Shown here: one piece after another, positions 185 through 31,549 of the stretch
Position numbering within the stretch: position 1 is the first letter of the stretch
Layout: each line of letters starts with the position of its first letter
NCBI GenBank assembly: GCA_003194425.1
Contig: PQXB01000001.1
Coordinates: 940,444-972,443, forward strand
Source of the DNA: Candidatus Methanophagaceae archaeon
GTDB taxonomy: Archaea > Halobacteriota > Syntropharchaeia > Alkanophagales > Methanospirareceae
Length of the DNA: 32,000 nt
Reading direction: 5' to 3'
Position numbers and translations under genes: made by a program
The notes under the pieces: generated by a model
What the model was told of the DNA's origin: nothing
The model's database searches: none
The model's input: the letters and a program-made list of their open reading frames with translations, nothing else

Positions 185-238
185 ACTGGGCGAAAATATA
201 ACTGGGCGTGGGCGAAAATATAACTGGGCGAGAATATA
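185..238. promoter_or_regulatory. Three tandem copies of an ACTGGGCG(A)AAATATA unit, each with a TATA-like box, in a divergent intergenic region
   Basis: Copies lie at 185-200 and 201-222 (the latter with an internal extra TGGGCG) and at 223-238 (AAAATATA becomes GAATATA). The block ends 3 nt before the ATG at 242. The TATA-like AAAATATA at about 215-222 is roughly 20-27 nt upstream of that ATG, which fits a leaderless archaeal transcript. Confidence 0.45.
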
Positions 239-241
239 AAA

Positions 242-1300
242 ATGGACGAGTGGAAGCCGAGGAAGATTGAAGCACTCTTTGAACTGGGCGTCCACGAGCT
301 CGGGGAGCGGGCAGATTCCGTCAACCGCAGGAACGGAAACATCGTGACTTTCGTCGTTAACCGACACATAAATTACACGAACATTTGCGTCTCGAAGTGT
401 CCGCTCTGCGCCTTTTACCGCGACGCTGAAGAGAGTGACGCGTATTTTATGAGCGCTGCGGAGGTGCTTGAGAAGGCTGCGGAGGCTGTAAAAAAGGGTG
501 CTACGGAACTTCACATCGTCGGCGCACTCAACCCTGAAATGAGCGTAGAATACTTCGAGCGGATTTTCGGGCAGATAAAACGTCGGTTTCCAGAGGTTGT
601 CGTAAAAGCCTTGACCGCGACTGAAATTCATTTTCTCTCGCAGCACGAGGGGACGAGCGTTGCGGAAGTGCTCGGACGGTTGAGGGACGCGGGACTGCGA
701 GCAATGCCCGGCGGTGGTGCGGAGATTCTTGACGACGAAATTCGGGCGGTCATTTGCCCGAGCCCGCAGAAAGTAACAGCCGAGGAGTGGCTTCGGACGG
801 TGGAGACTGCCCACCGCCTCGGAATAAAGAGCAACGCGACAATGCTCTTCGGGCACATTGAAACACCAAGACACCGCGCTCTTCACCTCTACCGGCTCTG
901 GCAGTTGCAGGAGAAGACGGGCGGGTTTGTCTCCTTCGTCCCGCTCGTTTTTTACCCCGAGAACACGGAGCTCAAAGCACGAGGGCTGGTTGAGGAGAAG
1001 ACGAGCCCCGTGGACGTGCTCAAGACGATCGCGGTCTCCAGAATTGTGCTGCAGAAGTTCAAGAGCGTGCGGGCGTACTGGGTCGCACTCGGCGAACGGC
1101 TCGCTCAGGTCGCTCTAAATTACGGTGCGAACGATTTGGACGGCACGCTTACCGAGGAGCGGGTCACGCACTCTGCGGGGGCGAAAACGCCTCTTGCACT
1201 TCAGACAAACAAGATTCTGAGCCTTGTGCGGGGCGCGAACGCGAACAAAATACCCGCAGAAAGGGACACTTTTTACAACATTTTGAAGGTGTTTTCGTGA
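242..1300 (+). CDS. Radical SAM enzyme of the MqnE/MqnC (futalosine pathway) family
   Basis: The CX3CX2C cluster motif occurs in NRHINYTNICVSKCPLCAFY. Also present are PGGGAEILDDEIR, ATMLFGHIET and GGFVSFVPLVF. The PGGGAE signature favours MqnC/MqnE over CofH (PGTAAE). The gene sits next to an MqnA/D-family gene. Confidence 0.8.
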   Translation: MDEWKPRKIEALFELGVHELGERADSVNRRNGNIVTFVVNRHINYTNICVSKCPLCAFYRDAEESDAYFMSAAEVLEKAAEAVKKGATELHIVGALNPEMSVEYFERIFGQIKRRFPEVVVKALTATEIHFLSQHEGTSVAEVLGRLRDAGLRAMPGGGAEILDDEIRAVICPSPQKVTAEEWLRTVETAHRLGIKSNATMLFGHIETPRHRALHLYRLWQLQEKTGGFVSFVPLVFYPENTELKARGLVEEKTSPVDVLKTIAVSRIVLQKFKSVRAYWVALGERLAQVALNYGANDLDGTLTEERVTHSAGAKTPLALQTNKILSLVRGANANKIPAERDTFYNILKVFS

Positions 1301-1301
1301 A

Positions 1302-2159
1302 ATGAGCAGGAAGACAAGAATCGGGAAGTTCGGGTTCGTGAACAATTTTCTGCCTTACTACAGGCTGGAGCAGAACGGGGTGGCGGTGGTTGAGGCGTCG
1401 CCGAAGCGGTTGGCGGGGCTGCTTGAGCGGGGCGAGGTGGATTTCGCACCCGTGCCTTCGTTCTACTACCTGAAGAACAAGGAGAAGTTGAGGAGTTACG
1501 AGTTCTGCGTCGCCTCAACAGAGCGGGTCTTGAGTGTGGTCGTCGTTTCCGAGAGGGCGGGGCGGCTTGAAAGGGGAGCAGGGCTTGAAGGAGAGTGGAG
1601 AAACGGCTGTGTCGCTGCGACGAACCAGACAGTAACCTCGCTCAACCTGCTGAAAATTATTCTGCGGGAGCGGGGGTTGGGAGAGGTGGGGTTGGGAGAG
1701 GCAGGGTTGGGAGAGGCAGGGTTGGGAGAGGCGGAGTTGGGAGAGGCGTGGGAGGTGAAGGTTGTGAATGAAAGTAGGGCAGGCGAACTACTCAAGCACG
1801 GCACGTACGCACTCGTGATCGGCGACGAGGCGATCCGGGCGAGGCTGACTAACAAGTACAGGGTAGAGTTGGATTTGGGAGCGGAGTGGCGGGAATTAAC
1901 GGGCTGTCCGATGGTTTTTGGGATTTCGGCGTCGCCGAGGGAGAAGGAGTTGGGAGAAGAGAGCAGGAAGGTTTTGGAGTCGCTGGCGTGGGGGGAGAAG
2001 CACGTTGAGGTGGTGGTGGGGGAGGCGGAGAAGAAGTTTGGAATGCCCGCGGAATTTCTACGCGAGTATTTCAACTCGCTCACCTACCGACTGGGTGCGA
2101 GGGAACGGCGGGGGCTTGAACTGTTTGAGGAGAAGTGTTATGAATTTGGGTTGCTCTGA
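1302..2159 (+). CDS. MqnA/MqnD family protein (PF02621, menaquinone biosynthesis via futalosine)
   Basis: The N-terminus RIGKFGFVNNFLPYY...SPKRLAGLLERGEVDFAPVPSFYY is typical of chorismate dehydratase or 1,4-dihydroxy-6-naphthoate synthase. The start lies 1 nt after the upstream stop and the end overlaps the next gene. It is flanked by two MqnC/E-type radical SAM genes. Confidence 0.7.
   Translation: MSRKTRIGKFGFVNNFLPYYRLEQNGVAVVEASPKRLAGLLERGEVDFAPVPSFYYLKNKEKLRSYEFCVASTERVLSVVVVSERAGRLERGAGLEGEWRNGCVAATNQTVTSLNLLKIILRERGLGEVGLGEAGLGEAGLGEAELGEAWEVKVVNESRAGELLKHGTYALVIGDEAIRARLTNKYRVELDLGAEWRELTGCPMVFGISASPREKELGEESRKVLESLAWGEKHVEVVVGEAEKKFGMPAEFLREYFNSLTYRLGARERRGLELFEEKCYEFGLL
1674..1748 (+). 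repeat. 15-bp x5 in-frame tandem repeat (GGGTTGGGAGAGGNN) encoding GLGEV-GLGEA-GLGEA-GLGEA-ELGEA
   Basis: Read directly from the sequence. Copies 2 and 3 are identical and the others differ by 1-2 nt. The repeat is codon-aligned with the 1302 frame. Confidence 0.95.
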
Positions 2160-3240
2160 GTGGGCGTGGGCAGATTTGGTGGAGAAGAATTTGGAAGGTA
2201 GGGATTTGAGTTTCGAGGAAGCGTTGCGGCTGTTTGAGTTGCCGTTGCCGGTTGTGGGTAGAATTGCGGACGAAATTCGGCGGGTGCGGTGCGGAGAGCT
2301 CGTGACCTTCGTTGTTGACCGGAACATAAATTACACGAACCGCTGCGTAGCAGGCTGCAAGTTCTGTGCGTTTTACGCAAAGGGCGAAGAAGAGGGGTTT
2401 GTTTTGAGTGAAGAGGAGGTTTTGAGGAAGGTTAGGGAGGCTGTTGAAGTCGGTGCGACGCAGATTTTAATTCAAGGCGGACTCAACCCGGAACTTGGAA
2501 TTGAGTGGTTTGAGGCTCTGTTCTCGGCGGTAAAGCGTGAATTTCCGGGCGTCCCACTTCAGATTCACAGCCTCTCACCGCCTGAAATCCATTTCCTCGC
2601 GAAGAACGAGGGGCTGAGTGTGAAAGAGACGCTTGAGAGGTTGCGAGAGGCGGGGCTTGACTCACTGCCCGGCGGAGGAGCGGAGGTTCTGAGTGAGCGG
2701 GTCCGGAAGGCGGTTAGCCCCGGCAAAGTCAGTGCAGACGGCTGGATTTCGATAGTGGAGACTGCACACGGGCTTGGAATGCCGACGACCGCGACGATGA
2801 TGTTCGGGCATCTTGAACGCGACGAAGACATTGTCGAGCATCTCTTTAGGGTACGCGACTTGCAGACAAAAACAGGCGGCTTCACCGCTTTCATCCCCTG
2901 GACTTTTCAGCCGCAGAACACAGAACTCCACGCCTGCGGGCTCGTAAAAGAGCCGGTCTCGGCAGCGAGGTACTTGCAGGTCTTGGCGATTTCGCGGGTC
3001 GTTCTGCACCCGTTCCGAAATCTGCAGGCGTCGTGGCTCACGCAGGACTTTGAAGTCGCGAAGTTGGCACTCTTCTTCGGTGCGAACGACTTCGGCGGCA
3101 CGATTCTTGAGGAAAATGTCGTAACCGCAGCAGGGAAGGAGCACAGACCCGCGAGGGTTGCGGAGATTGTTAAAGCCGTGAAATCGGTCGGCAGACCCAC
3201 AGCACAGCGGAACACGAGTTACGAGGTCTTGTGTTTGTAA
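2140..3240 (+). CDS. Radical SAM enzyme of the MqnC/MqnE family (second paralogue)
   Basis: Motifs are DRNINYTNRCVAGCKFCAFY, SLPGGGAEVLSERVR, ATMMFGHLE and GGFTAFIPWTF. I place the start at ATG 2140 (MNLGCSEW...), overlapping the previous gene by 20 nt. The ORF-track start at 1918 would overlap the MqnA/D gene by 240 nt and encodes an R/W-rich nonsense-like peptide. Confidence 0.8.
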   Translation: MNLGCSEWAWADLVEKNLEGRDLSFEEALRLFELPLPVVGRIADEIRRVRCGELVTFVVDRNINYTNRCVAGCKFCAFYAKGEEEGFVLSEEEVLRKVREAVEVGATQILIQGGLNPELGIEWFEALFSAVKREFPGVPLQIHSLSPPEIHFLAKNEGLSVKETLERLREAGLDSLPGGGAEVLSERVRKAVSPGKVSADGWISIVETAHGLGMPTTATMMFGHLERDEDIVEHLFRVRDLQTKTGGFTAFIPWTFQPQNTELHACGLVKEPVSAARYLQVLAISRVVLHPFRNLQASWLTQDFEVAKLALFFGANDFGGTILEENVVTAAGKEHRPARVAEIVKAVKSVGRPTAQRNTSYEVLCL

Positions 3241-3246
3241 AGTTGT

Positions 3247-3277
3247 GAGGAGGAGGGAGGAGGAGGGAGGAGGAGGG
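3247..3277. repeat. 10-bp x3 purine tandem repeat (AGGAGGGAGG) in a convergent intergenic region
   Basis: Copies at 3251-3260 and 3261-3270 are identical, with partial copies on both sides. The repeat lies between the stop at 3240 (+) and the stop at 3324 (-). Confidence 0.9.
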
Positions 3278-3323
3278 GATCATAAAGTTCGATCCCGCCG
3301 CTCGCTCTATTTCATTCGTGAAA

Positions 3324-5126
3324 TTAAGGAGCCTCTCTCCCTTCCCCCCCAACCAGCATCCTCCCGTAAATCTCAATCGCCCTCCTCAAGTCCGCCTCCT
3401 TCAAGAACCCCTGCAGTGTCAGGACTTCAAAAATCCGCTTCGGAATGCGAAGTCCTGCGAGGCTAAACCCTTCGCGAAACTTGAACTCCATCTTTGCACG
3501 ATGAATAACTCGCCCGAGGTCTTCTAATTTCTCCGCTGTCCAGCCTTCTACGCCAATCGCGTCCAACGCCCGTGCTGTCACCTCCGCGGTGTAAACCTTC
3601 CTCGCAAAGAAGCAGACCACGAGGCTTGAAAGCACCTGCCGCCACTCCTCCTCCTTTAACAACGCCCTCACCACCTCTTCAAGCCCGAGTTCTTTTTCTT
3701 TTCCCGCTCCCGCCAACTTCTGGTCAAGGTCGTAGCCCGCGGAGTCAAGGTGGCTGTGCCTCGCTCCCGTAAGATTGTTTATGTAGCACGCGAGCCCGGT
3801 GTGGTATGCAGGCATCTCGTTGCCGCCGAATGCGAGTGCGTAGTCTTTCCCGCCGTAGACGCTTGACGCGTGTTCTACACCCCTCGCCAGATTTCGGTAA
3901 AACTCGTTCGCCCCCTCCACGATTTTATTTATCGCCTCAGAATAAAGACGAGCGTCGCCCCACCTGAACTCCAGTCCCTCAGTCTGCTCCTTCGTCAGCA
4001 GCCCCTTCGCGTACGCCTCCGTCGCCCACGCCAGCGTCACGCCAGTGCTCATCACATCCATTCCTTCAGTGTCAACCAGGTCAATCAGCCGCAGGCAATC
4101 AGCCGCACTCCTCATCCCGAGCATAAATCCAACCGCCCAAATCGGCTCGTTGTCGTAAGGAATCGTGGTGGTCTTGAAGTAATGCCCGGGCTCGTAAAGC
4201 TCTCGCAGCGCGGCAAGATGAACACAGCCCACAGGACAGTGCGAGCACGAAATCCGCCTCGCAAGAAACCGGTCTGCAAAGTTCTCGCCCGACAATTCCC
4301 TCGCAATCTCCTCCGGCGGACTCGCAGACTCCAAGTTCTTGTACGCTATTCCTCCTTTCTTTGCCAAACCGTAAAGCTTGCCTGCTGTGCCGAGGTCGTG
4401 GTATTTTTCCATCGCATCTGTCCTGACCACCGTCTCCTGAATCTCGTCGTAAACACGCTTGTATTCGCTCCTCTTCGCCTTCGGGATCTCCACGCTTTTC
4501 TCCGCAGACACGACCACCGCTTTCAGCCGCTTCGCACCCATCACCGCACCCAAGCCGAGCCGCCCAAAATGTCGGTAAGTCTCGGTTACCGCGCAGGCGT
4601 ACCGCACCAGCCGCTCACCCGCTCTTCCAATCCGTATAATCGTCCTCGCGCCCGCTCCCTTCTTCTCCACCTCCCGCAGAATCCTTCCCACTGTCTCTGC
4701 GTCAATGCCCCTGAGGGAAGAGGCGTCTCTGAACCTCACTTCGTCCCCGTGTATCGTCAGGTACATCGGGATCTCGCTCGAGCCTTTGATTACAATCGCT
4801 CCGTAACCTGCGAGCCGAATCGCCATCGCACTCCGCCCGCCGCAGTGGCTCTCGCCCAAGTTCCCAGTCAGCGGCGACTTAAACATCGCCACGGTCTTGG
4901 ACGCCGAGGGGTACAAAGCCGAGAGCGGACCGACTGCGAAAATTATTGGGTTCTCCTCGCCCAGCGGGTCCGCCCCCTTCGGACACTCCTCTGCCAGCAG
5001 ATTTATCGCAACCCCCGTACCACCCAGAAACGCCCTAAACAAATCCCGCCTCTCCTCTATTTTAATCCTCTTCCTCGTCAAGTCAATGTGCAAAACCCTT
5101 CTCCCCTCTCCTTCTTTCATTAACAT
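3324..5126 (-). CDS. Aldehyde:ferredoxin oxidoreductase family (tungsten/molybdopterin AOR)
   Basis: The protein is about 600 aa with the AOR N-domain (RVLHIDLTRKRI..., GGTGVAINLL, GPLSALYPSASK) and a CSHCPVGC cluster motif. I use ATG 5126 (MLMKEGEG...), which is preceded by GGAGGGGAGAAAAA. The ORF-track start at 5297 would overlap the ferredoxin gene. Confidence 0.85.
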   Translation of the reverse strand: MLMKEGEGRRVLHIDLTRKRIKIEERRDLFRAFLGGTGVAINLLAEECPKGADPLGEENPIIFAVGPLSALYPSASKTVAMFKSPLTGNLGESHCGGRSAMAIRLAGYGAIVIKGSSEIPMYLTIHGDEVRFRDASSLRGIDAETVGRILREVEKKGAGARTIIRIGRAGERLVRYACAVTETYRHFGRLGLGAVMGAKRLKAVVVSAEKSVEIPKAKRSEYKRVYDEIQETVVRTDAMEKYHDLGTAGKLYGLAKKGGIAYKNLESASPPEEIARELSGENFADRFLARRISCSHCPVGCVHLAALRELYEPGHYFKTTTIPYDNEPIWAVGFMLGMRSAADCLRLIDLVDTEGMDVMSTGVTLAWATEAYAKGLLTKEQTEGLEFRWGDARLYSEAINKIVEGANEFYRNLARGVEHASSVYGGKDYALAFGGNEMPAYHTGLACYINNLTGARHSHLDSAGYDLDQKLAGAGKEKELGLEEVVRALLKEEEWRQVLSSLVVCFFARKVYTAEVTARALDAIGVEGWTAEKLEDLGRVIHRAKMEFKFREGFSLAGLRIPKRIFEVLTLQGFLKEADLRRAIEIYGRMLVGGEGREAP

Positions 5127-5139: not shown

Positions 5140-5565
5140 CTAAACCTCGACCAGTCCAATCGCGTTATGCACGCAATAATCCGCACATTCTCCGCAATAT
5201 CTGCAGACAATTGGCTTGTTCTTCTCGCTACTCCAGAAGATTGCACCCATAATGCAGGCTTGCACGCAGAAACCACACCCGATGCACTTGTCCTCATTCA
5301 ACACCACTCCCCCTCCGCCTCCCCCTCCGCCTCCTTTTTCCTTCCGCTCTCTTAACGCACCCGTGGGACAGACTTTTGCACACGGCGGGTTCTCGCAGGA
5401 ACGGCAGACGACGACTACAAAACCCCGTTCTATGCCTCCTGCAGACCGCACTCTTATCGCCGAATTGTCAAAACCGCCTCTGCCTACCCTTCTCGAGCAC
5501 GCAAACATACATTCCATACAACCGATGCATTTGTTCACATCCAGCGTCGCTAATTTTTTTGCCAT
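5140..5565 (-). CDS. 4Fe-4S polyferredoxin-like protein (four Cys-cluster motifs), probable AOR partner
   Basis: Cluster motifs are CIGCMECMFAC, CRSCENPPCAKVCP, CIGCGFCVQAC and CRYCGECADYC. The gene lies immediately upstream of AOR on the same strand with a 13-nt gap. Confidence 0.8.
   Translation of the reverse strand: MAKKLATLDVNKCIGCMECMFACSRRVGRGGFDNSAIRVRSAGGIERGFVVVVCRSCENPPCAKVCPTGALRERKEKGGGGGGGGGVVLNEDKCIGCGFCVQACIMGAIFWSSEKNKPIVCRYCGECADYCVHNAIGLVEV
5309..5334 (-). repeat. 12-bp x2.2 tandem repeat (CCCCCTCCGCCT on the + strand) encoding a run of 9 Gly in the ferredoxin
   Basis: Copies at 5309-5320 and 5321-5332 are identical. The translation is KEKGGGGGGGGGVVL, located between cluster motifs 2 and 3. 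Confidence 0.9.
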
Positions 5566-5584: not shown

Positions 5585-6667
5585 TCAAAATATAATTTTA
5601 TCCAGAGACCCCTGCTGCCCCTGCTGCCCCTGCTTGAGTGCGATTTTTATCTCTCTTGAGATTCGCCTGCCGGTGCTCATTGGCTCGTGGTAGAGCAGTT
5701 GCGAGTAAGGGGAGCCGTTAATGTAGAGGTTTGTGCCTGCCACAATTCGTGCGGAAATCTCGAACGCAACAAACTCCAAATCCTCGGTGCAGACGGTTTC
5801 AATGCAGAAAGGACCTGTCAAGCCGGGGCTGAAGAGTTCTTGCGAGGCTTTAACCACACGCAGACCCATTCCCAAGACTTGCTGCAGGAGCGATTCCCTG
5901 ACCACAACTGGAAGATTTCCGGTGACTACAAAAGAGAGGACAGGGTGGAGGTCTTCGAGAAGGGAAGAGAGTCGGGCGAGTCCGTCGATGTTGGATTCGT
6001 AGCGGATGTCAATGCTGAGGAGTTCCAACCTCTCCGTCAGTGGTGAGTAGAAGTAGTGGGGGTAGAACCTCGTTCCAATTACATATTCTTGAAGTGTAAA
6101 TTTTTCCTTTCCTCGTAGTTTCATTTTTCTGATCTTCCTCTCAAACTCTTCAGGACTCCCCGCGAGGAAGTAGCCCTTCCCGCCTTTAGCGCCGGGGAAT
6201 TTGACAATTACTAGTAGGTCAATTTCAGCAGGGCTCTTGAACTCCCGCGGGAGCCTCAGGTCGGCACGCACCAGCCATTCCCGCTCCTTCTCACGGTCAG
6301 ATTCCCAGTTCAGCACCGCTCTGTTCCCGAAGATTGGGACCTTGAGTTCGTTCTCAATGCGTGCGGGCGAGAGGTATTCAACGAAGGAGCCGTGCGGGAT
6401 AAGAATGGCGTTTCTCTTTATCAGACCCTCCTGAAACTCCGTTTCCAGAACCTGCGTGAAATTCTCGACGGTTAGGAGTTCGTCAGCCACGCCGAACTGC
6501 CGGTAGACCTCTTCGGTGCCTTTTTTACAAATCACCAGATTCTTGAAGCCCTCGTCTCTTGCTCCTTTAAGAATTTGGAGTGCGGTGTGACTCCCGATAG
6601 TGGCGACAGTTATTCTCTCCCGAGCGTAGCCTTTCAGAATCTGATGAATTTCTCTTCGTGATATCAT
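5585..6667 (-). CDS. purP: PurP, 5-formaminoimidazole-4-carboxamide ribonucleotide (FAICAR) synthetase, ATP-grasp
   Basis: The N-terminus ...ITVATIGSHTALQILKGARDEGFKNLVIC and the ATP-grasp core are those of the archaeal PurP family (DUF1246/DUF1297). It is a tandem paralogue of the next gene. Confidence 0.8.
   Translation of the reverse strand: MISRREIHQILKGYARERITVATIGSHTALQILKGARDEGFKNLVICKKGTEEVYRQFGVADELLTVENFTQVLETEFQEGLIKRNAILIPHGSFVEYLSPARIENELKVPIFGNRAVLNWESDREKEREWLVRADLRLPREFKSPAEIDLLVIVKFPGAKGGKGYFLAGSPEEFERKIRKMKLRGKEKFTLQEYVIGTRFYPHYFYSPLTERLELLSIDIRYESNIDGLARLSSLLEDLHPVLSFVVTGNLPVVVRESLLQQVLGMGLRVVKASQELFSPGLTGPFCIETVCTEDLEFVAFEISARIVAGTNLYINGSPYSQLLYHEPMSTGRRISREIKIALKQGQQGQQGSLDKIIF
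5611..5635 (-). repeat. 9-bp x2.8 tandem repeat (CCTGCTGCC on the + strand) encoding QGQQGQQG near the PurP C-terminus
   Basis: Copies at 5611-5619 and 5620-5628 are identical, with a partial copy at 5629-5635. The protein tail reads ...ALKQGQQGQQGSLDKIIF. Confidence 0.9.
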
Positions 6668-7885: not shown

Positions 7886-8077
7886 TTACTTTATCACAAT
7901 CGTGTGGCTCATCAAGTTTATCTCTTTTATCCGCCCCGTCACATTTTTTGTCTCGCCAAATATTCCCCTCAGTTTTATCTCCTCGCCACTGACCTCCACT
8001 GTTGCCACATCCTCCATCAGCAACTCCCTGCCGCCCTCTTCGCCTCCCCTTTCAATCAGCACTCTTGATTCACACAT
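7886..8077 (-). CDS. CooT-family small protein (PF10133; nickel-binding, formerly 'predicted RNA-binding')
   Basis: The protein is 63 aa and starts with MCE (Cys2). The pattern ...LLMEDVATVEVSGEEIKLRGIFGETKNVTGRIKEINLMSHTIVIK matches the family consensus. The start lies 3 nt after the ahcY stop. Confidence 0.65.
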   Translation of the reverse strand: MCESRVLIERGGEEGGRELLMEDVATVEVSGEEIKLRGIFGETKNVTGRIKEINLMSHTIVIK

Positions 8078-9362: not shown

Positions 9363-9394
9363 CCCTCTTTTCCAAATACCCTCTTTTCCAAATA
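9363..9394. repeat. 16-bp x2 perfect tandem duplication (CCCTCTTTTCCAAATA on the + strand) at the 5' end of ahcY
   Basis: Copies at 9363-9378 and 9379-9394 are identical. On the coding strand they read TATTTGGAAAAGAGGG x2. The second copy supplies the alternative upstream ATG at 9391. Confidence 0.9.
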
Positions 9395-13568: not shown

Positions 13569-13593
13569 TTGCTTGCCACTGCTTTTTTTCGTT

Positions 13594-13623
13594 GCAAATT
13601 TATTATTTGCAAATTTATTATAT
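13594..13623. repeat. 15-bp x2 tandem duplication (GCAAATTTATTATTT) in the divergent MFS/gap promoter region
   Basis: Copies are 13594-13608 and 13609-13623 (13/15 identical). They are followed by TTTTTATAG about 25-30 nt upstream of the gap ATG (13656). Each unit carries TATA-like TTTATTAT. Confidence 0.8.
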
Positions 13624-19227: not shown

Positions 19228-19332
19228 CACGGGCTTAAGAAAAAATATTTGAGGACTTAATTCATAACATATTTAGTTACAACTTCTTCGGGTCAAGGAG
19301 ATAAGTCAAAGACAGAGATTTCAATCGATTCT

Positions 19333-19515
19333 TTGATTAAAGAACATTACCCAGAAGCCCACTTTTTAGGCTTCGTCGATGGCATTGGCTGGTATGTGAG
19401 AAAGAAGGATCTGAAAAGAATGGTTGCTGCTTATGAAGATGTTTTTACATTTCACCGAGAAGAGTTAGGGCGGTTTAAGCAATTGTTACGGGAGGCATTT
19501 GCTAATGATGGATAA
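19333..19515 (+). CDS. Small hypothetical protein (60 aa from TTG), overlapping the start of the downstream methyltransferase
   Basis: The frame is open from 19261 but has no ATG. The stop at 19513-19515 overlaps the MTase ATG (19505) by 11 nt. The region is AT-rich like the MTase. I recognise no family. Confidence 0.35.
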   Translation: MIKEHYPEAHFLGFVDGIGWYVRKKDLKRMVAAYEDVFTFHREELGRFKQLLREAFANDG

Positions 19516-20429: not shown

Positions 20430-20461
20430 AGGAGAAGGAAGGTCTAGGAGAAGGAAGGTCT
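20430..20461. repeat. 16-bp x2 perfect tandem repeat (AGGAGAAGGAAGGTCT) in the intergenic region
   Basis: Copies at 20430-20445 and 20446-20461 are identical. The repeat lies between the MTase stop (20425) and the ilvB start (20494). Confidence 0.9.
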
Positions 20462-24541: not shown

Positions 24542-24546
24542 TTTCT

Positions 24547-26952
24547 CTAAATTTCCCACACCCACGCCTCTCGCACCTCTTCTAACGAAAGATTCACCAA
24601 CTCTTTCTTCTTCTCCCCTCCGTCCAGAATCTGAATCTTCTCCCCTCCCACCGTCTCGCCAATTTTGGCTGCACGAACGCCTCTTCCCCTTAGCAACTCC
24701 TCAAACCGCCTCTCTTCCTCACCCCACACCTCCACCACCCACCTCGTGTTAGACTCCGAGAACAACTTGAAATCGCTCCTCAATTTTGAATTCACCTTTC
24801 CAAGATCAACAAACGCACCAACCTCGCCGCCCCCACCCAACAGCATTTCGCAGACCGCGACCGCGAGACCGCCTTCCGAAATGTCGTGGCAGCTCGCCAC
24901 CACCCCCTCCTGCATCGCGCACCTTAACGCAGACATTCTCCGCTTCAGCACCTCCGGGTCTACCCTCGGCACAACCCCTCCTTCTACTCCTCTCCCTCCA
25001 GCTTTCACACCCCGCAGTTTAAAATACTCGCTCCCGCCCAACTCCGCTCTCGTTTCGCCCAGCAAGTACAGAGAATTCCCAGCCTCCTTTGCATCAACAG
25101 TAACGCACTCTCGAACGTCCTCGCAGAGCCCGACGCCGAGAACCGCGGGCGTAGGCGGAATCGCCTCACCCAGAACCGCCGACTCGTTGTAAAAACTCAC
25201 ATTCCCGCTCACAAACGGCACGCCGAGCGAGGACGCCACGAACCCAAGCCCACGACAGCACTCGTAGAAATCTCCAAGCCGGTCCGGCTTCTCAGGGTTG
25301 CCGAAGTTCAGGCAGTCCGCGAACGAGTGCGGAACCGCTCCCACCGCGGTCAAATTCCGACAGACCTCGTCCACCGCACTCGCAGCACCCCAGAACGGGT
25401 CCAGTCTGCAGAACGAGGGATTCACATCCGAGGAAATTGCGAGACCCTTGTAGGACTTTTCTAACGGCTTCAGCACCGCTGCGTCCCCGTGCGTCTCCTT
25501 CCCTAACCGCCCCTGCAGCGGCTTCAGCACCGTCGCACCCCGCACCTCGTGGTCGTACCGCCTCACAACAGCCTCCCGAGACGCGATGTTCGGAGCAGCG
25601 AGCAACCCCCTCAAGACTTCGTTGTAGTCCGAGGGCTCTTCTGGAACTTTTTCTTCCCGCGTCTTTCCCCCAGCCTTCCCCCCCGCCCGCCTCACTTCCC
25701 GCGGTCGCTCACAGACAGGCGACGCCACTAAAAAATCCAACTCCAACTCAAAGACCTTCTCGCCCTCGTAAAAAATCCTTACCAAGTCTGACTTTCCTAA
25801 AGTTTGCAGCGAAGCATTTTTAATCAAACTTTTCTTAAAAGTTTGTCCTACAACTACAGCATCCAAATCCCACGCCTCAAAAACCGCCAGCAACTCTTCC
25901 ACTTTTTCTCTTGAGACCGAGATTAAGAACCGTTCCTGCGACTCCGAGACCCAAATCTCCCACGCTGCAAGCCCCTCCTCTTTCAACTTCACCCGCTCCA
26001 ACCAAACATTCGCACTGCACCCGCCCGCGTGGCACATTTCGCTCACCGCACAGGACAACCCGCCACCCCCCAAATCTTTCATCCCGCTAATCAATCCCCG
26101 CTCGTTCGCCTCTAAAATCGCGTGAATCAGTGGCTCCTTCGTTATCGGGTCGCCGACTTGAACCGCACTTCTACTTCGGAACTCCTCCTCACCGGCTAAC
26201 TCACCCGAGGCGAAGGTAACGCCGTGAATGCCGTCCCGCCCGGTCTTCCCTCCGACAAGAACGAGCACCTCGCCCGGTTTCGCCCTGCTCCGCCTCAAGT
26301 CCGACTTACGCATTATTCCCACGCAGCCCACATTCACCACGCAGTTCCCCAGGTAGCCCTCGTCGAAATAGACCGAGCCTGCGCAGGTCGGAATCCCAAT
26401 CCGATTCCCGTAGTCGCTTATTCCCGCAACCACGCCCTCAAACAAGAACCTCGGGTGCTTCACCCCACCACCCTTCCCTGAGTCTCCACAATCCAGCGGA
26501 CCAAAGAACAACGGGTCAACCAGAGCCACTGGCTGCGCGCCCATGCAAACGACATCCCGCACAATCCCGCCGATTCCTGTTGCTGCACCGCCGTAAGGCT
26601 CGACCGCGGAGGGGTGGTTGTGGCTCTCGAACGCCACGACATAAGCGTGCTCCTCGTCAAATTCCACGACCCCCGCGTCCTCCTTTACCTCTAACAAATT
26701 TTGCTGCTCTTTTGCTTTAACGCCAAAAATAAACTTCTCCAAGATTTTCCGCGAACTCTTGTAGCAGCAGTGCTCGGACCACGCCTGTGCAATGCTCTGC
26801 AACTCCACTTCCGTCGGCTCTCGCCCTTTCGCCACGAAATACCTCTTTACCCGCCGCATCTCCTCTAAACTCAGCGAAAGCCCCAGCCTAGCACTTACAC
26901 TCCCCAACTCCTCGTCGCCCGCGTCCCTCACGCTCACTTCAGTCCTTTTCAT
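24547..26952 (-). CDS. purL: Phosphoribosylformylglycinamidine (FGAM) synthase II
   Basis: Motifs are AQAWSEHCCYKSS, FESHNHPSAVEPYGGAATGIGG and duplicated PurM-like domains. I use ATG 26952 (MKRTEVSVRD...). The 93-codon upstream extension in the ORF track crosses AT-rich promoter-like DNA. Confidence 0.9.
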   Translation of the reverse strand: MKRTEVSVRDAGDEELGSVSARLGLSLSLEEMRRVKRYFVAKGREPTEVELQSIAQAWSEHCCYKSSRKILEKFIFGVKAKEQQNLLEVKEDAGVVEFDEEHAYVVAFESHNHPSAVEPYGGAATGIGGIVRDVVCMGAQPVALVDPLFFGPLDCGDSGKGGGVKHPRFLFEGVVAGISDYGNRIGIPTCAGSVYFDEGYLGNCVVNVGCVGIMRKSDLRRSRAKPGEVLVLVGGKTGRDGIHGVTFASGELAGEEEFRSRSAVQVGDPITKEPLIHAILEANERGLISGMKDLGGGGLSCAVSEMCHAGGCSANVWLERVKLKEEGLAAWEIWVSESQERFLISVSREKVEELLAVFEAWDLDAVVVGQTFKKSLIKNASLQTLGKSDLVRIFYEGEKVFELELDFLVASPVCERPREVRRAGGKAGGKTREEKVPEEPSDYNEVLRGLLAAPNIASREAVVRRYDHEVRGATVLKPLQGRLGKETHGDAAVLKPLEKSYKGLAISSDVNPSFCRLDPFWGAASAVDEVCRNLTAVGAVPHSFADCLNFGNPEKPDRLGDFYECCRGLGFVASSLGVPFVSGNVSFYNESAVLGEAIPPTPAVLGVGLCEDVRECVTVDAKEAGNSLYLLGETRAELGGSEYFKLRGVKAGGRGVEGGVVPRVDPEVLKRRMSALRCAMQEGVVASCHDISEGGLAVAVCEMLLGGGGEVGAFVDLGKVNSKLRSDFKLFSESNTRWVVEVWGEEERRFEELLRGRGVRAAKIGETVGGEKIQILDGGEKKKELVNLSLEEVREAWVWEI

Positions 26953-27000
26953 CCTTCTGAAAATTGTCTTTTTTCTTTTTGAGTACAGGTTTCTTTTGTA

Positions 27001-27020: not shown

Positions 27021-27037
27021 GAAAATTTTTTAAAAAA

Positions 27038-27607
27038 ATGGAAACTAAAAATCTGAAAACGGATTTGTTGTGCCTGGGTGCAAGACTGTCGGTCTCGGAC
27101 GCGAACAAAGGTGCTGGTGAAGGCGGGAACACGAGCACGAGCACAAGAACGAGCACAAGCACAAGCACAAGCACGAGCAGGAGAGCGGGTGCGGGTCCTG
27201 CTGCGGGCGGAATGTTCATTTTTGGCGGCACGGTCGCGAATGTTCCAACGCAGAGCTGGTTCGTTTCCGCGTCGCCTTACTGCGTTTCTTCAGAAGAGGG
27301 AAAAAATGTAATAAAAAAGGACGGCGAGAAGGTTGCGGAGGTAACGTTCCCGCGTGCAAGGTTTCAGCGTCTCAAGACCAAAGACGGCGTGCCGTACAGC
27401 AAAATCGCACTCCTGCACGGCGTGGACTGCCTCGCGACTACGACGGTGCAGACCTGCGTTTACTGGAACACGCCGAAGCGGTGCAAGTTCTGTGCGATTG
27501 AACTTTCACTGAAGAGTGGGGCGACGGTAGCGAGGAAGGAGCCGGAGCAGCAATCTCTGACAACAACATATCTGACAACGGCTACGGTATTGGGTTATGG
27601 GATTTGA
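27038..27607 (+). pseudogene. Truncated radical-SAM-like gene (N-terminal portion only); start at 27038 or 27212
   Basis: The GC-rich ORF contains LHGVDCLATTTVQTCVYWNTPKRCKFCAIE, a Cys-rich CX8CX2C cluster-like motif. Coding-like sequence stops at an abrupt compositional break near 27550, and the frame ends in nonsense-like residues. The family is not identified. Confidence 0.35.
27131..27178. repeat. Hexanucleotide microsatellite (AC[G/A]AGC) x8
   Basis: The sequence reads ACGAGC ACGAGC ACAAGA ACGAGC ACAAGC ACAAGC ACAAGC ACGAGC. It would read (TS/TR)n in ORF 27038(+) or (LV)n in the spurious purL extension. Confidence 0.9.
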
Positions 27608-28809
27608 GTAACGACAACCTCATCTACAACAATTATTTCAACACAGAACTCAGGTAGAGAATGTCGTGGATAATGTTGAGCACTTTGATAGTACTGGCGA
27701 TAAAGTAAGTAATCTCGGTGATTACTACGTTGACCTGTATCACTTCGCACGTTTAATTAAAACATCCATTAACGATTCTGAAATACAAAATGATGCACAG
27801 AATGTTATGGATGCAATCACGAATGCCGTAATCGCAAACTACATTGGCTACGAACACTCTAATTCTCAGGGGATATCCATATATCTCTCGGACCCAAGAT
27901 ACAACGAGATGCATAAGATTTATGAGACCGAGGTTGTCTTCTCTCGTGATACGGATGAGTTTTTATCCACTTACAATGATTTACAACCACCAGAAACTAC
28001 GATAACGGACGGGCAGTCCAAATGGGTACTATAGATTCAGCAATGTAACATTCACATGGACAGGCACAGACGATGTAACACCAACTGCTCAGTTGGTCTA
28101 TTCGTATATCTTGGAGAGTTACGATACTTCTTGGTCGGATTGGACTTCTAATACGAGTATGGCTTACAATAATTTGCCGAATGGAAATTACACATTCAAA
28201 GTAAAAGCAAAAGATCAAGCTGATAATATAGACCCAACACCAGCCGAGAGGGCATTTACGGTTTTTGTCGGGGGAAACCTACCGCCAATCGCAAACTTCA
28301 CTTACACCCCAGAAAATCCAGTAGTAAACCAAACGATAACCTTCAATGCTTCTAATTTCTCTGACCCTGATGGTTTTATCGTGAAATACGTGTGGAACTT
28401 CGGAGATTCTTCCGCAGGTGAAGGAAAGGTTGTAACTCATTCTTATTCCTCTCCTGCGGACTACATCGTAACACTAAATGTGATTGATGATAAAGGGGCA
28501 AAGAACACGACCAGCAGAGAAGTAAAAGTAAAAGAGGAAGCGAAGCCGAGGGTCTCGATTTACAAGCAGACTTTTACGATTCCGCTTAAGGTCGGCGAGT
28601 ACGGACTCGGGTTCAACGCGTCCTGGTTCGTCACTCTCTACAACACAACGACCTACGAGGTTCTCGCGGAGAGGACACAGCGGACTGGCGGTTCGTGTCA
28701 GAGTCAGGTAAGACGGCGGAAGGAGAGGCAAAAACATCAGAAATGCGACCCGATAACGAGATTCTTCATATCTCTTTCTTGTCTTACTTCTTTTCCTCTG
28801 ATTCAATAA
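27550..28809 (+). pseudogene. Degraded gene for a secreted or surface protein with at least two frame changes. It contains a beta-helix repeat fragment, a clostripain(C11)-like C-terminal segment, a Y_Y_Y-type domain and a PKD domain.
   Basis: Frame 1, 27550-27654, reads ISDNNISDNGYGIGLWDLSNDNLIYNNYF (PbH1-like). Frame 3, 27666-28034, reads YVDLYHFARLI...QGISIYLSDP (C11-like). Frame 1 from 28006 reads PNGYYRFSNVTFTWTGTDD...YSYILESYDTSWSDW...NGNYTFKVKAKD (Y_Y_Y-like). It is followed by PIANFTYTP...WNFGDSS...YIVTLNVIDDKG (PKD). No start codon or signal peptide is present. The region is AT-rich. Confidence 0.55.
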
Positions 28810-28826
28810 AATAAATATTAGACGCG

Positions 28827-29756
28827 ATGTCGAGACAAAGACTAAAAAGACTAAAAGACGGCGAGCTCGTGCACCTGTTAGACGAAAAAGGAAAAGGAAG
28901 AAGGCACGAGATTTTGCTGAAGGCGGGCTCCTCCTTCACCTTCTCTCGTGGCACGATTTCGCACGACGAAATAATCGGGTTGGCGGAAGGAAGCACGGTG
29001 AAGTCCTCGCTCGGCAGGAGACTCGTTGTCGTCCGACCCACGCTGGCGGAGTACGTGGCGAAGATGCGGAAAGGCTCGCAGGTAATTTACCCCAAAGACA
29101 TCGCTGCGATTTTGATGCTTGCCGACATTTTTCCGGGTGCGAGCGTGCTGGAGGCGGGAACTGGCTCGGGAGCACTTACGCTGGCTCTGCTGCGTGCAGT
29201 CGGCACGGCTGGGCGGGTGGTCTCGTACGAAAGACGGCGTGAGTTTTTGGAGGTCGCCCGAAAGAACATTGAAACTTTTTTTGGCAGGGTAGCGGCGAGT
29301 GCGGAGAAAGAGGGCTTGGGGTCGGGGTCGCTGGAACTGCGGGAGAAGGACATTTACGAAGGCGTAGAAGAGGAAGAAGGTCAGGGAGAAGGGCAGAGAG
29401 AAGGGCAGGGGGAAAAGAGAGAAGGGCAGGGAGAAAAGAGAGAAAAGGAAGAATTTGACAGAATAATTTTAGACCTTTCAGAGCCTTGGCGAGTGCTTCC
29501 GCACGCCGAAGAGTCGCTCAGAGACGGCGGAATCCTGCTCTGCTACAACCCCACAGTGCTGCAGATTTTCAAACTTGCGAAGCGGCTTGAGTTGAGGCAC
29601 GCGAAGAGTTTTCGTGTAACAGGAATTTACGAGGTCGGTCTGCGGGAGTGGGAGGTGAAGGGCAGGAGCATTCGACCCGAGCTGAGAATGGTCGCGCACA
29701 CGGGTTTTATTTTTGTAGCGAGGAAATGCTCCCCCACAGAATCAAAACTACCGTAA
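28827..29756 (+). CDS. trmI: tRNA (adenine-N1)-methyltransferase TrmI (GCD14 family)
   Basis: Motifs are IYPKDIAAILMLADIFPGASVLEAGTGSGALT, FDRIILDLSEPW and MVAHTGFIFVARK. Confidence 0.85.
   Translation: MSRQRLKRLKDGELVHLLDEKGKGRRHEILLKAGSSFTFSRGTISHDEIIGLAEGSTVKSSLGRRLVVVRPTLAEYVAKMRKGSQVIYPKDIAAILMLADIFPGASVLEAGTGSGALTLALLRAVGTAGRVVSYERRREFLEVARKNIETFFGRVAASAEKEGLGSGSLELREKDIYEGVEEEEGQGEGQREGQGEKREGQGEKREKEEFDRIILDLSEPWRVLPHAEESLRDGGILLCYNPTVLQIFKLAKRLELRHAKSFRVTGIYEVGLREWEVKGRSIRPELRMVAHTGFIFVARKCSPTESKLP
28849..28869 (+). repeat. 9-bp x2.3 in-frame tandem repeat (AGACTAAAA) encoding RLKRLK at the TrmI N-terminus
   Basis: Copies at 28849-28857 and 28858-28866 are identical, followed by a partial copy. 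Confidence 0.8.
29376..29441 (+). repeat. 21-bp in-frame tandem repeat (GAAGGGCAGGG(G/A)GAAAAGAGA x2, plus a related preceding copy) encoding EGQGEGQR-EGQGEKR-EGQGEKR in TrmI
   Basis: Copies at 29400-29420 and 29421-29441 differ at 1 nt. A degenerate copy lies at 29376-29399. The block sits just before the FDRIILDLSEPW motif. Confidence 0.9.
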
Positions 29757-30154
29757 ACCGCTTCCTTCAGCCCGCCCAGGCTCGCAGAGAAGAACAAATG
29801 ACTTCTGCACGAGCAGTCGCTGCAGCCGAAGTTCTTTACGAAATCCAAGCCCTCGCACTCCAACAAATTCGCCGCGATTTCGCATTCCCTTCTCCTCCTC
29901 CCTAACGCCGTCTCCGCAAACACCACCTCCTTCACTTCTACCCCAGGACTCGCCAGAAAATAGTCAATGTGCCAGTGCAGTTTTTTGTTCTCGCCGACTG
30001 CACGCAAGTGCCGTCCCACTCGCTGCTCCAAGCCCGCGAGTGCAGAGCCGACGTAGGCGTAAAATCCGTTTTTGAACGCAATGCTTCCGAGTTTGCCTAC
30101 TTTCACTTCTCTGCTTGCACTGTTTTTTATGAGCAGCACGTAAGTCCCTTTCAT
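29627..30154 (-). CDS. DUF123 (GIY-YIG/Uri-superfamily endonuclease-like) protein
   Basis: Motifs are GTYVLLIKN...VGKLGSIAFKNGFYAYVGSA...RVGRHLR...KLHWHIDYFL and GCSDCSCRSHLF. The C-terminal roughly 40 codons overlap the trmI 3' end. Confidence 0.75.
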   Translation of the reverse strand: MKGTYVLLIKNSASREVKVGKLGSIAFKNGFYAYVGSALAGLEQRVGRHLRAVGENKKLHWHIDYFLASPGVEVKEVVFAETALGRRRRECEIAANLLECEGLDFVKNFGCSDCSCRSHLFFSASLGGLKEAVYGSFDSVGEHFLATKIKPVCATILSSGRMLLPFTSHSRRPTS

Positions 30155-30388
30155 TTCCCTCCTGCTTTCCTTTTATTTTTATCTTTGCAGATTGGTTTGT
30201 CTACTAATTAACAAATCAATGGATTGACGGATAATATAAAACAACTAATTTATTTTATGGTAAAAAGGGATAGGAAAGGAAGTTTATAATAGCATGCCCA
30301 ACAGGTTCGTGAAGGATTAAAGAAACCAAAAAAGCAAGAGGCTTATGAGTGTGGTAAGAATATTTATTAATTTTTAGACAAACCATTT

Positions 30389-31549
30389 ATGATGATAAAT
30401 TATTTTAAGCCAATGACGAAAAAAATACTCGAAATAAAAGCCTGGAAAGAGCTTTTAGACCTTAATATGCAGGTTTACCTCTTAACAATTCTATTCTGCA
30501 TAATTATTACAAAATCTTATAATTATGGCGTAGCAGCAGAAATAACAATACTAATAAGCCTTTTATCATTATATTTGGTCTACACATTCCTCGTTAATGA
30601 TTACTGCGACATGCCCTTTGACATAAAAGCAGGGAAAAAAAGGGCGATTCACGAAATGCCAAAAATCGTACCTCTTGGAATGCTCATTTTTTTCGTCTTC
30701 TTGAGCGTTATTTTGACCCTGCTTCTGATTTTTTGGAACTCTGAACCTCTCTCAGAAGGTCTCTCAGAAGGTCTCTCAGAAGGTCTCTCAGAAGGTCTCT
30801 CAGAAGGTCTCTCAGAAGGTCTCTCAAAATATGGAATCTTCGTCCTCCTTTACGGTACCGCTTACTTCCTCGCTACAGTCTACTCCGCGTTTCCTGTAAG
30901 GCTGAAGAGCAGGGGCTCGCTTGGCATAATCGACGATGTCTTGATAGAAAAGACGCTCCCTGTCCTACTAATCTTTTCGTTCTTCGAGTATTACAATCTC
31001 GAAACGCTCCTTTTAGTCGTTCTTTTCTCGCTGCTGCAGCTGAAGATAATTGTAGAACATCAGATCTTGGACTACGAGGCGGACTTAAAGACTGAAGTTC
31101 ATACCTTCGTCGTTAAAGTGGGCGTCAAAAAGGCATCGTCTCTTTTAAATGCAGTCCGTGTCTTCGTGCTACTTTTTTTCATCCTCTTTGCAATAACGCT
31201 CCTGCTAAAAATCCCTTTTTCTGTGATAATCTTAGCCCCCCTTTTCATAGGCTATTTCGTAATGAAAAAACTTGTCGCAGAGGGGAAAGTCGAGAAGAAG
31301 GCGGCGCGTCAGGATTTAAATGTTCCGAAGGAATGGATTGACCGTGTGCCGCTCTATGATGGCTACATCGTCTCGAGTATGAATATTGTCTCGCTGTTTC
31401 TGGCTCTTTTCCTCGCGTTTAAGTCTTATCCTTTTACGGCTTACGGCTCTGCACTGCCCGCCTTTTTAATCGCCCTCGTCTTAATATCGCAGTACTACCT
31501 TATCAGAAATATTTACATACCCTTAACAAAAACCGTTATTTCCTGTTAG
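30389..31549 (+). CDS. UbiA-superfamily prenyltransferase-like membrane protein
   Basis: The protein is polytopic and hydrophobic. The first Asp-rich motif is NDYCDMPFD (NDxxDxxxD) and the second is DYEAD (DxxxD). The gene is AT-rich. Confidence 0.65.
   Translation: MMINYFKPMTKKILEIKAWKELLDLNMQVYLLTILFCIIITKSYNYGVAAEITILISLLSLYLVYTFLVNDYCDMPFDIKAGKKRAIHEMPKIVPLGMLIFFVFLSVILTLLLIFWNSEPLSEGLSEGLSEGLSEGLSEGLSEGLSKYGIFVLLYGTAYFLATVYSAFPVRLKSRGSLGIIDDVLIEKTLPVLLIFSFFEYYNLETLLLVVLFSLLQLKIIVEHQILDYEADLKTEVHTFVVKVGVKKASSLLNAVRVFVLLFFILFAITLLLKIPFSVIILAPLFIGYFVMKKLVAEGKVEKKAARQDLNVPKEWIDRVPLYDGYIVSSMNIVSLFLALFLAFKSYPFTAYGSALPAFLIALVLISQYYLIRNIYIPLTKTVISC
30749..30827 (+). repeat. 12-bp x6.5 perfect in-frame tandem repeat (CTCTCAGAAGGT) encoding LSEG x6 in the UbiA-like protein
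   Basis: Six identical copies span 30749-30820, followed by a partial copy (CTCTCAAA). Confidence 0.95.

Follow-up and report, generated by a model that had tools for sequence, protein, structure and literature searches.

The closest described counterparts of the repeats analysed here are the tandem repeats (TRs) and amino-acid tandem repeats (aaTRs) of Borgs (Schoelmerich et al. 2023, PLoS Biol; PMC9879509). Borgs are giant linear extrachromosomal elements of Methanoperedens that have inverted terminal repeats and genes oriented along a single strand, and 0.62% of their genomes lies in perfect TRs of at least 50 nt and at least three units, against at most 0.01% in Methanoperedens (PMC9879509). 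The units of Borg TRs are enriched in A; all those within genes are divisible by three, compared with 14–38% of the intergenic ones, the aaTRs form intrinsically disordered regions, and the proteins that carry them are enriched in extracellular or membrane proteins (PMC9879509). Variable-number tandem repeats (VNTRs) and coding minisatellites are also reported in bacteria, including the MIRU-VNTR loci of Mycobacterium tuberculosis and a 57-bp repeat in leuA (PMC2704214, PMC12817950). Here we analysed a stretch of 32,000 nt (the window) of contig PQXB01000001.1, from an archaeon of Candidatus Methanospirareceae, a deep-branching thermophilic ANME-1c family (PMC9894754, PMC9539880). An earlier note, made from the sequence alone, had described a burst of short in-frame TRs within the housekeeping genes of this window. 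We found that the TR density in these housekeeping genes is about seven times that of relatives.

Density of the repeats in the window and its relatives

TR loci were called with Tandem Repeats Finder (TRF) at a score of at least 50 and a period of at least 6, with a looser set at a score of at least 40, and a locus was counted as perfect when it had at least two copies over at least 24 nt. In the 32-kb window, TRF returned 61 rows, which corresponded to 20 loci (25 in the looser set). The mean numbers obtained from 200 dinucleotide-preserving shuffles and from shuffles of 300-nt blocks, which keep the local composition, were 0.10 and 0.32, respectively. Similarly, 15 perfect loci were observed against 0.01 expected from either type of shuffle. 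Within coding sequences (CDSs), we detected 13 perfect TRs of at least 18 nt, all with units divisible by three, compared with 0.48 after shuffling of the codon order of each gene. Because the dinucleotide, block and codon-order shuffles give almost none, the repeats of the window are far beyond chance, and the burst reported in the earlier note is real. Most arrays are short (2–6 units, none above 110 nt), and many are 86–96% rather than 100% identical; the copy numbers are non-integer, and the arrays therefore end in partial units. Six arrays have four or more copies, or about 190 per Mb; more than four satellites per Mb has been counted as unusual (Subirana and Messeguer 2019, PMC6749651), under criteria that differ from those used here.

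The window was compared with two sets of loci under the same TRF parameters. The same-species set consisted of L002–L006, which are 98–99% identical to the window in nucleotide sequence and come from separate samples and pipelines, together with L001 (Logan), which is 100% identical. The control set consisted of 62 NMD3 loci (790 kb) from other archaeal genomes, mostly Methanophagales, among which a scan of genome contigs returned relatives of at most 63% identity. In addition, we used L078 and L079, which represent two other ANME-1c genera with orthologues 67–74% identical. L079 was reached by a search with a sister-genus Cbf5 protein, the match carrying an SKA repeat, and was used as a control only. 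The possibility that L079 is an unlinked region of the same genome was rejected, as it represents a third ANME-1c species with shorter HAD, AIR-synthase-like (AIRS-like) and radical SAM orthologues (67–74% identical) and a GC content of 45%.

The window and L001–L006 contain 6.2–8.3 TRF loci per 10 kb, compared with 0.92 in the control loci, and 3.4–5.9 perfect loci per 10 kb, compared with 0.22. The two sister genera are TR-poor, with no locus in 20.7 kb of L078 and two loci in 21 kb of L079. The comparison of density with relatives, which the earlier note had proposed as a check, thus supports its claim. The repeats also extend beyond the window. On the left flank, six loci were found in 10 kb (L071) and five in the next 6.5 kb (L084), where the hosts are a methyltransferase, a GHMP-kinase-like protein, a cupin-type isomerase, an MfnB-like protein and a reductase. 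The right flank (about 4 kb, L074) carries further TRs, though this segment has a GC content of only 42–45%. The TR density is equal over about 52 kb of contiguous chromosome.

These comparisons bear on the possibility that a purine-loaded, relatively GC-rich thermophile genome is simply of low complexity. The coding strands are 57.6% purine with a GC skew of up to 0.35, most units are purine-rich, and haloarchaeal loci at 65–70% GC reach 2–4.8 TRF loci per 10 kb, few of them perfect. However, composition-preserving shuffles leave 0.01–0.5 loci where 13–20 were observed, and TRs are 7- to 20-fold less frequent in relatives whose purine/pyrimidine tracts are equally abundant. Moreover, two relatives near 50% GC (L042 and L024) have no TRF loci at all, TRs persist in the 40–45% GC segment, and the copy numbers differ between strains. 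Such a compositional background is therefore largely refuted, and we regard it as a very improbable explanation. The window itself has a GC content of 52%, falling to 40% beyond about 30 kb, whereas most ANME-1 lie at 41–47%; the description of the region as GC-rich holds relative to most ANME-1, but the absolute value is only 52%. Over most of the region the species has a GC content of 52–56%, compared with 45% at the orthologous genes of the two sister genera. The rise in GC and the TR burst fall in one lineage, and the increase from 45% to 52–56% may be part of the same shift as the burst.

Copy number, reading frame and origin of the repeats

Alleles were compared by BLAST of the window against the five strains, followed by extraction of each locus between conserved anchors. 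The strains differ from the window by 0.6–0.7% substitutions, and nearly all indels fall on TR loci, where their lengths add up to whole repeat units (of 9, 10, 12, 15 or 16 nt). The sole exception is an extra 2-nt change beside the stop codon at the C-terminus of the HAD hydrolase gene. At least 15 loci are polymorphic in copy number, while those at 5609, 6703, 12427 and 18255 are fixed in the strains compared. The MqnA alleles are at least 99% identical apart from the number of units, and the TrmI alleles differ by 1, 7 or 8 residues within the repeat block but show 100% identity over the rest of the protein. These results support the recent or ongoing expansion that the earlier note had proposed. 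Single-copy alleles at 3247, 5307, 13592, 20430 and 28837 show the unduplicated progenitor sequence. At only 0.7% divergence, any pair of strains differs at about half of the loci, from which we estimate that length changes at a locus are roughly a hundred times more frequent than substitutions at a single site. An exact-sequence look-up with the UbiA-family protein gave no match, and the copy numbers of its repeat (Table 1) were obtained via the TrmI look-up.

Short-read assemblers can collapse or expand arrays, and the collapse of TRs by assemblers has been reported in the Borg papers. Contigs and scaffolds do break at TR loci in our material: L071 ends (at 11405) just before the MqnA repeat, and stretches of N interrupt L003 at the window equivalents of 1673, 9363 and 16550. 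These breaks suggest mixed alleles within samples, and protein databases therefore hold truncated copies, such as MqnA fragments of 110–144 aa. An artefact as the source of the repeats is nevertheless highly improbable. The same loci are present in at least seven independent assemblies (Logan, MGnify/ENA assemblies by megahit and SPAdes, NCBI metagenome-assembled genomes (MAGs) and JGI), and the arrays, at 110 nt or less, are under the typical read length. In addition, the assemblies differ in the order of unit variants and not in length alone, and the reading frames remain intact.

The units of 16 of the 17 CDS TRs are divisible by three (binomial P=3e-7), compared with two of the eight intergenic TRs (Fisher P=0.001). 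The earlier note had called the coding repeats strictly in-frame, which holds but for the weak match at 4077–4107, and its observation that intergenic units are mostly off multiples of three agrees with our count. Of the 14 CDS loci that it listed, 12 are clear expansions or insertions and RLK at 28837 is small but genuine, as a one-copy allele (P0161) exists. GTL at 17793, in the AIRS-like protein, was rejected, since its nucleotides are imperfect, it is missing from the TRF output, and the motif is conserved as GTMGTLG in the orthologue. Conversely, the HAD internal array (16550–16608) and the 9-nt array of the acetolactate synthase (ALS) large subunit (21548–21567) had been missed. Intergenic DNA carries about 28 TRs per 10 kb, compared with 5.8 per 10 kb in CDSs (approximately 5-fold); non-coding DNA makes up 9% of the window. 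The frame rule needs no frame-aware mechanism, because purifying selection alone would yield it. Likewise, the 25-nt repeat at 6703 is tolerated because its unit carries a stop codon, leaving the extra copy untranslated.

We next consider where the repeats lie in their host proteins. In NMD3, orthologues of 54–67% identity have no repeat where the species carries AGTRA units. The AlphaFold model of NMD3, which is of moderate confidence, places residues 109–137 between two strands with pLDDT below 50 and without secondary structure, and the repeat segment is accordingly predicted to be an unstructured loop. The RpoF repeat sits in a linker that is charged and length-variable in all orthologues, which do not have the repeat block; the RpoF model is poor throughout (mean pLDDT 53) and gives weak support at most. 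The N-terminal, internal and C-terminal blocks of the HAD hydrolase are all missing from the 71%-identical L078 orthologue, and the MFS orthologue lacks the QEQK block, which occupies the central loop of the transporter. In TrmI, a 25-residue block absent from the 63%-identical L022 orthologue is located between two stretches that align to solved TrmI structures (PDB). These alignments, which the earlier note had called for, indicate that the repeat blocks are lineage-specific insertions, lying at loops, linkers or termini. The aaTRs consist of G (27%), E (20%), A (12%), Q (9%) and S (8%) among other residues, with no C, W, Y, H, M, I or N, and the repeat-encoded segments are probably disordered. 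Most hosts are cytoplasmic enzymes or information-processing proteins, the MFS transporter and the UbiA-family protein being the only membrane hosts.

The repeat units are strongly biased in composition, with 27 of 32 being at least 75% purine or pyrimidine. On the coding strand, TRs contain 45.5% G, 28% A and 10% T, compared with 32.5% G, 25% A and 22% T in genes; GGGGTTGGGAGAGGC is one example of the G/A-rich units of this species. Outside TRs, 41–43 purine or pyrimidine runs of at least 10 nt occur per 10 kb in every Methanophagales group, including the TR-poor ones. Because the TR-poor relatives are equally rich in such tracts, the substrate is not what sets the species apart, and the abundance of purine tracts was rejected as the cause of the burst. 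Beyond the purine bias, units at different loci are unrelated. The repeats are therefore not a dispersed element, a dispersed repeat family or transposition being rejected on the same ground, and the arrays are of local origin.

Taken together, we consider it likely that tandem duplication and slippage became more frequent in this lineage, on an ordinary ANME-1c chromosome, and that selection then filtered the resulting repeats. Short tandem duplications would arise at an unusually high rate in this one thermophilic ANME-1c species. They would begin preferentially in homopurine/homopyrimidine G/A-rich tracts, with duplicated units of about 9–27 nt irrespective of the reading frame, and the arrays would then grow and shrink through replication slippage. 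Selection would keep any unit length in intergenic DNA, and in genes only units divisible by three would persist, at loops, linkers and termini. The survivors would add G/E/A/Q/S-rich, probably disordered, peptides to conserved housekeeping proteins. From the pattern as a whole we infer the slippage mechanism, and also that what changed in this lineage was replication or repair and not substrate or selection. In vitro, slippage on repeated templates is reported for archaeal PolB and PolD (PMC4134008). Decreased repair at structured purine-rich DNA would be an alternative to more slippage there.

An adaptive origin has been proposed for Borgs, and by the same reasoning the lineage might build disordered aaTRs and promoter repeats under positive selection, the density then reflecting retention. 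The aaTRs do consist of disorder-promoting residues; this bias, however, is explained by purine-rich codons. Two different methyltransferases carry similar EGQGE-type repeats, echoing the Borg pattern of similar proteins with similar aaTRs, and the loci at 5609 and 6703 are fixed in all strains. Several intergenic TRs copy TATA-like or start-proximal sequence (185–239, 9363–9394 and 13592–13621), and on this view they would be regulatory promoter repeats. Against selection as the general cause, near-identical strains differ freely in copy number and show no favoured allele, the TR density per base is about 5-fold higher in intergenic than in genic DNA, the hosts are unrelated housekeeping enzymes, and the sister genera do without the inserts. 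We therefore regard positive selection as an unlikely explanation of the density.

Several points nevertheless weigh against a lineage-specific rise in duplication and slippage. The main limit is that the sampling comprises about 52 kb of contiguous sequence from one genomic neighbourhood. The difference in density between intergenic DNA and CDSs rests on eight intergenic loci. The polymorphism was seen between assemblies, and the source of the raised rate was deduced from the pattern. If selection were relaxed, for example because the effective population is small, more TRs could be retained at an unchanged mutation rate. Given the difference in GC content from the sister genera, a residual compositional effect is possible, as is positive selection on some aaTRs.

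If the rate of duplication did rise in this lineage, we can suggest, more tentatively, that Borg-style TR proliferation is not peculiar to Borgs and that a discrete lineage-specific determinant, namely, a lost or altered replication or repair factor, acts in ANME-1c, an unrelated methane-oxidising lineage. This could be, for instance, a factor handling purine-rich or G-rich structured DNA. Such a determinant, if real, could be found by comparing the TR-rich species with its TR-poor sister genera, and might explain the formation of TRs in Borgs.

Repeat loci and neighbouring genes

The repeat loci of the window are listed in Table 1, together with the tRNA gene, which was the sole match in Rfam and tRNA scans of the window; no TR overlaps any known RNA family.

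Table 1. Repeat loci and the tRNA gene of the window, with their variation among strains
Position	Strand	Location	Unit and copies	Peptide or sequence	Alleles and remarks
185–239		Intergenic, directly 5' of the MqnE-like start (ATG 242)	22 nt x2 perfect or 16 nt x3 imperfect	TATA-like AAAATATAA in each unit	Identical in L071 and L072
1673–1748	+	MqnA, between two Pfam-matched protein halves	15 nt x5.1	GLGEA	2, 3, 4 or 5 units
3247–3277		Intergenic, convergent radical SAM and AFOR genes	10 nt x3.1	Pure purine, GAGGAGGAGG	1 or 3 units; 1 copy in three strains
4077–4107		CDS	14/15 nt, two copies, imperfect		Weak; sole CDS TR off the divisible-by-three rule
5307–5334	−	Ferredoxin, between two cluster motifs	12 nt x2.3	G9	1 or 2 units; single copy in all five other strains (137 aa vs 141 aa here)
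5609–5634	−	PurP, C-terminus	9 nt x2.9	QGQQGQQG	Fixed in all strains compared
6703–6752		Copies the last four codons and stop of the second PurP gene	25 nt x2	ETVT and stop	Fixed in strains compared
9363–9394		Intergenic, immediately 5' of SAHH start	16 nt x2		2 or 3 units; 3 copies in L005 and L006
9566–9651	+	RpoF, variable charged linker	12 nt x6.2	TAEG/TAEE	Array −24 to +24 nt; six protein lengths in 4-aa steps (127, 131, 135, 139, 143, 147 aa)
11812–11880	−	NMD3	15 nt x4.6	AGTRA	1–4 units
12427–12448	−	MFS transporter	9 nt x2.4	SDLSDL	5-aa insertion vs L078 orthologue
12893–12971	−	MFS transporter, central loop	12/24 nt x6.6	QEQK/QEQR	−3 to −36 nt
13592–13621		Intergenic, divergent MFS/GAPDH promoter region	15 nt x2	AT-rich, TTGCAAATTTATTAT	1 or 2 units; 1 copy in L006
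15992–16063		tRNA-Arg(CCG)			Rfam and tRNA scans
16088–16132	+	HAD hydrolase, N-terminus	15 nt x2.9	GEEKE	Absent from L078 orthologue
16550–16608	+	HAD hydrolase, internal	Degenerate 6/21/27-nt array	G/A/R/E-rich	−6 to +36 nt
17025–17057	+	HAD hydrolase, C-terminus	15 nt x2.2	EGGAR	2–4 copies; tail absent from orthologue
20430–20461		Intergenic, methyltransferase stop to ALS start	16 nt x2	Purine-rich	1 or 2 units; 1 copy in L003 and L005
21548–21567	+	ALS large subunit	9 nt x2.2	VAK	2, 5 (L003) or 6 (L005) units
23629–23685	−	528-aa DNA methyltransferase, between two halves of the N6_N4_Mtase domain	21 nt x2.6	SSASSFT	
27130–27183		5' of PurL	Hexamer/12-mer array, ~9 units	CACGAG/CACAAG	Either intergenic or N-terminal extension of a truncated + strand radical-SAM-like ORF
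28837–28856	+	TrmI, N-terminus	9 nt x2.2	RLKRLK	One-copy allele P0161
29366–29453	+	TrmI	21-nt unit	EGQGEKR	25-aa insertion vs L022 orthologue; alleles of −1, −7 and −8 aa
30748–30826	+	UbiA-family prenyltransferase	12 nt x6.6 perfect	LSEG	2.6 (L074), 5.6 (L075) or 6.6 (window) units; local GC ~40%

Based on Pfam, the window encodes MqnA (VitK2_biosynth), three CofH/MqnE/MqnC-like radical SAM proteins, aldehyde:ferredoxin oxidoreductase (AFOR), an Fer4 ferredoxin (2x[4Fe-4S]), two PurP proteins, S-adenosylhomocysteine hydrolase (SAHH), RNA polymerase subunit F (Rpb4/RpoF), DUF655, NMD3, an MFS transporter, GAPDH, PGK, a HAD hydrolase, an AIRS-like protein, two N6_N4 DNA methyltransferases, the ALS large and small subunits, PurL, TrmI, DUF123 and a UbiA-family prenyltransferase. 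These matches confirm the gene identities given in the earlier note. The MqnA-family gene is flanked by two CofH/MqnE/MqnC-type radical SAM genes (242–3240), an arrangement that suggests menaquinone synthesis by the futalosine pathway. A small open reading frame (ORF) of the CooT family (63 aa; 7886–8077, − strand), between the second PurP gene and the SAHH gene, is called in all strain assemblies. The trio of HAD, AIRS-like and radical SAM genes has a gene order common to three ANME-1c lineages (window 18139–19227; L078 17795–20708; L079 744–3806).

The restriction–modification content varies among strains. In the interval between the AIRS-like and radical SAM genes, L002 (1962–3933) and L006 (1095–3066) carry a 474-aa methyltransferase and a 181-aa ORF. 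L003 (2474–3499) has a DpnII-like endonuclease adjoining the 306-aa methyltransferase. These genes are missing at the corresponding places in the window, which carries a 528-aa methyltransferase at 22979–24565. The GC content is lower around the genes concerned (in the window, 19230–20425 and 22979–24565).

The ORF at 27038–27607 (+ strand) resembles the N-terminal part of a radical SAM protein (CVYWNTPKRCKFCAIE) with an early stop, and an (ACGAGC)n array ahead of this ORF reads TSTSTRTSTSTSTS in its frame. On its 3' side, 27607–28810 holds low-GC ORFs, including a PKD-domain fragment, and about 450 bp at 27840–28287 is not present in L075. The region 27038–28810 may be a pseudogene or an insertion scar.

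The only indel cluster away from the listed TRs lies at 12102–12217, with many 1–4-nt differences over a CCTCTT-rich stretch. The N-terminus of NMD3 here reads MRMVGRRAGKMETEKEEEEGKRGRGG... in the window and the shorter MKKSGKEK... in four strains; the block may have arisen by recombination or by decay of a hexamer repeat. In the N-terminal region of the ALS large subunit (20494–20700), a 10-residue A/T/E/G-rich insertion, KEAATAEGAETEGG, is absent from the 82%-identical L024 orthologue; it has lost its TR score and may represent an older, decayed repeat insertion. Finally, similar repeats occur in two unrelated S-adenosylmethionine-dependent methyltransferases, namely, TrmI (EGQGEKR, 29366–29453) and a UPF0020-type enzyme (EGQGE/EGQSE, L084 1462–1521). 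This likeness recalls the Borg pattern, but could equally be chance arising from shared purine-rich codons.

Comparison with Borgs and chromosomal minisatellites

The proteins of the window are identical to PXF51670–PXF51692, which are encoded on a 1,187,124-bp contig of a Methanophagales/Ca. Methanospirareceae MAG; the genome with this contig is about 1.5 Mb, and an identical GAPDH is elsewhere labelled 'Candidatus Methanospirareceae'. Because these identical proteins sit on a 1.19-Mb contig and the gene order of the region is kept across strains, the window is a core chromosomal region, as the earlier note had held, and a mobile element is ruled out. This also bears on the possibility that the window belongs to, or recently came from, a Borg-like extrachromosomal element whose replication makes TRs. 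Under the Borg definition (at least 50 nt and at least three perfect units), two of the 20 window loci qualify (11812–11863 and 30748–30826), the rest being shorter or imperfect. They cover 0.41% of the window, a share similar to that in Borg genomes (approximately 0.62%). Borgs and the window also agree in the frame rule and in how large a part of the intergenic units is divisible by three. However, the window carries housekeeping genes (RpoF, NMD3, PGK, GAPDH, PurL, ALS and tRNA-Arg) on both strands, and its orthologues are vertically related within Methanophagales. Neither terminal repeats nor Borg marker genes were seen in the window. A Borg-like element is thus effectively refuted for the window and has almost no probability left; an associated element supplying a slippage-prone polymerase would be a separate possibility.

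The analogy with Borg TRs drawn in the earlier note is apt as an analogy and not as membership. In both cases the units are arranged head to tail, are unique to each locus and are flanked by partial copies. The frame rule holds for 16 of 17 genic TRs here, and 2 of 8 intergenic units (25%) are divisible by three, compared with 14–38% in Borgs. Copy number varies between close relatives, neighbouring lineages do without these repeats, the encoded residues are of the disorder type without cysteine, assemblies break at the repeats, and the density is comparable under the definition of at least 50 nt and three perfect units. In contrast, the carrier here is a cellular ANME-1c chromosome and not a linear extrachromosomal element. 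The units are G-rich or purine-rich and depleted in T, whereas those of Borgs are A-rich; the arrays are mostly short and many are imperfect; and the hosts are mostly cytoplasmic housekeeping proteins, whereas Borg hosts are extracellular or membrane proteins.

What makes the present case noteworthy is a Borg-level density on a cellular chromosome, with housekeeping genes as targets and TR-poor sister genera that make the cause tractable. If the pattern is genome-wide, it would provide a natural experiment, in which a TR-rich archaeon can be set against TR-poor close relatives sharing its gene content and purine-tract abundance. Through this contrast, the questions raised by Borgs, namely, what generates fast-evolving TRs and whether these are adaptive or a mutational by-product, become testable by comparative genomics. 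The repeats also show that conserved proteins, RpoF, NMD3 and TrmI among them, can accommodate variable, probably disordered, inserts. In practical terms, the TR loci are ready strain-typing markers for ANME-1c populations at hydrothermal sites, and they give warning that MAG assemblies and protein databases of this lineage are fragmented or heterogeneous in length at TR loci.

In the searchable literature, including two ANME-1c genome papers and a 2026 paper on ANME-1 diversification, we found no account of tandem repeats in ANME-1 genomes, in agreement with the earlier note, which knew of no such description. The hypervariable in-frame minisatellites of this species are apparently an undescribed, new instance of a known phenomenon. 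Bacterial VNTRs likewise are reported to lie in-frame in conserved housekeeping genes and to differ between strains by whole units, slipped-strand mispairing being the usual explanation; the units here are shorter (9–25 nt) and the density is far higher. Methanosarcina and haloarchaea also have common chromosomal TRs, many with multiple-of-three units that encode amino-acid repeats, and these are strongly species-specific (PMC6749651). The long-unit satellites of Methanosarcina, however, encode repeated domains of surface-layer proteins (PMC6749651). In the haloarchaeal loci that we sampled, many TRs are imperfect and few are perfect, whereas those of the present species are short, young and polymorphic and are spread across unrelated housekeeping genes. 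The repeats of this ANME-1c species thus work like Borg TRs but stand outside the Borg class as defined; they are coding minisatellites or VNTRs at an unusual density, of a kind known in bacteria, Methanosarcina and haloarchaea, where they are far sparser and lie in different types of protein.

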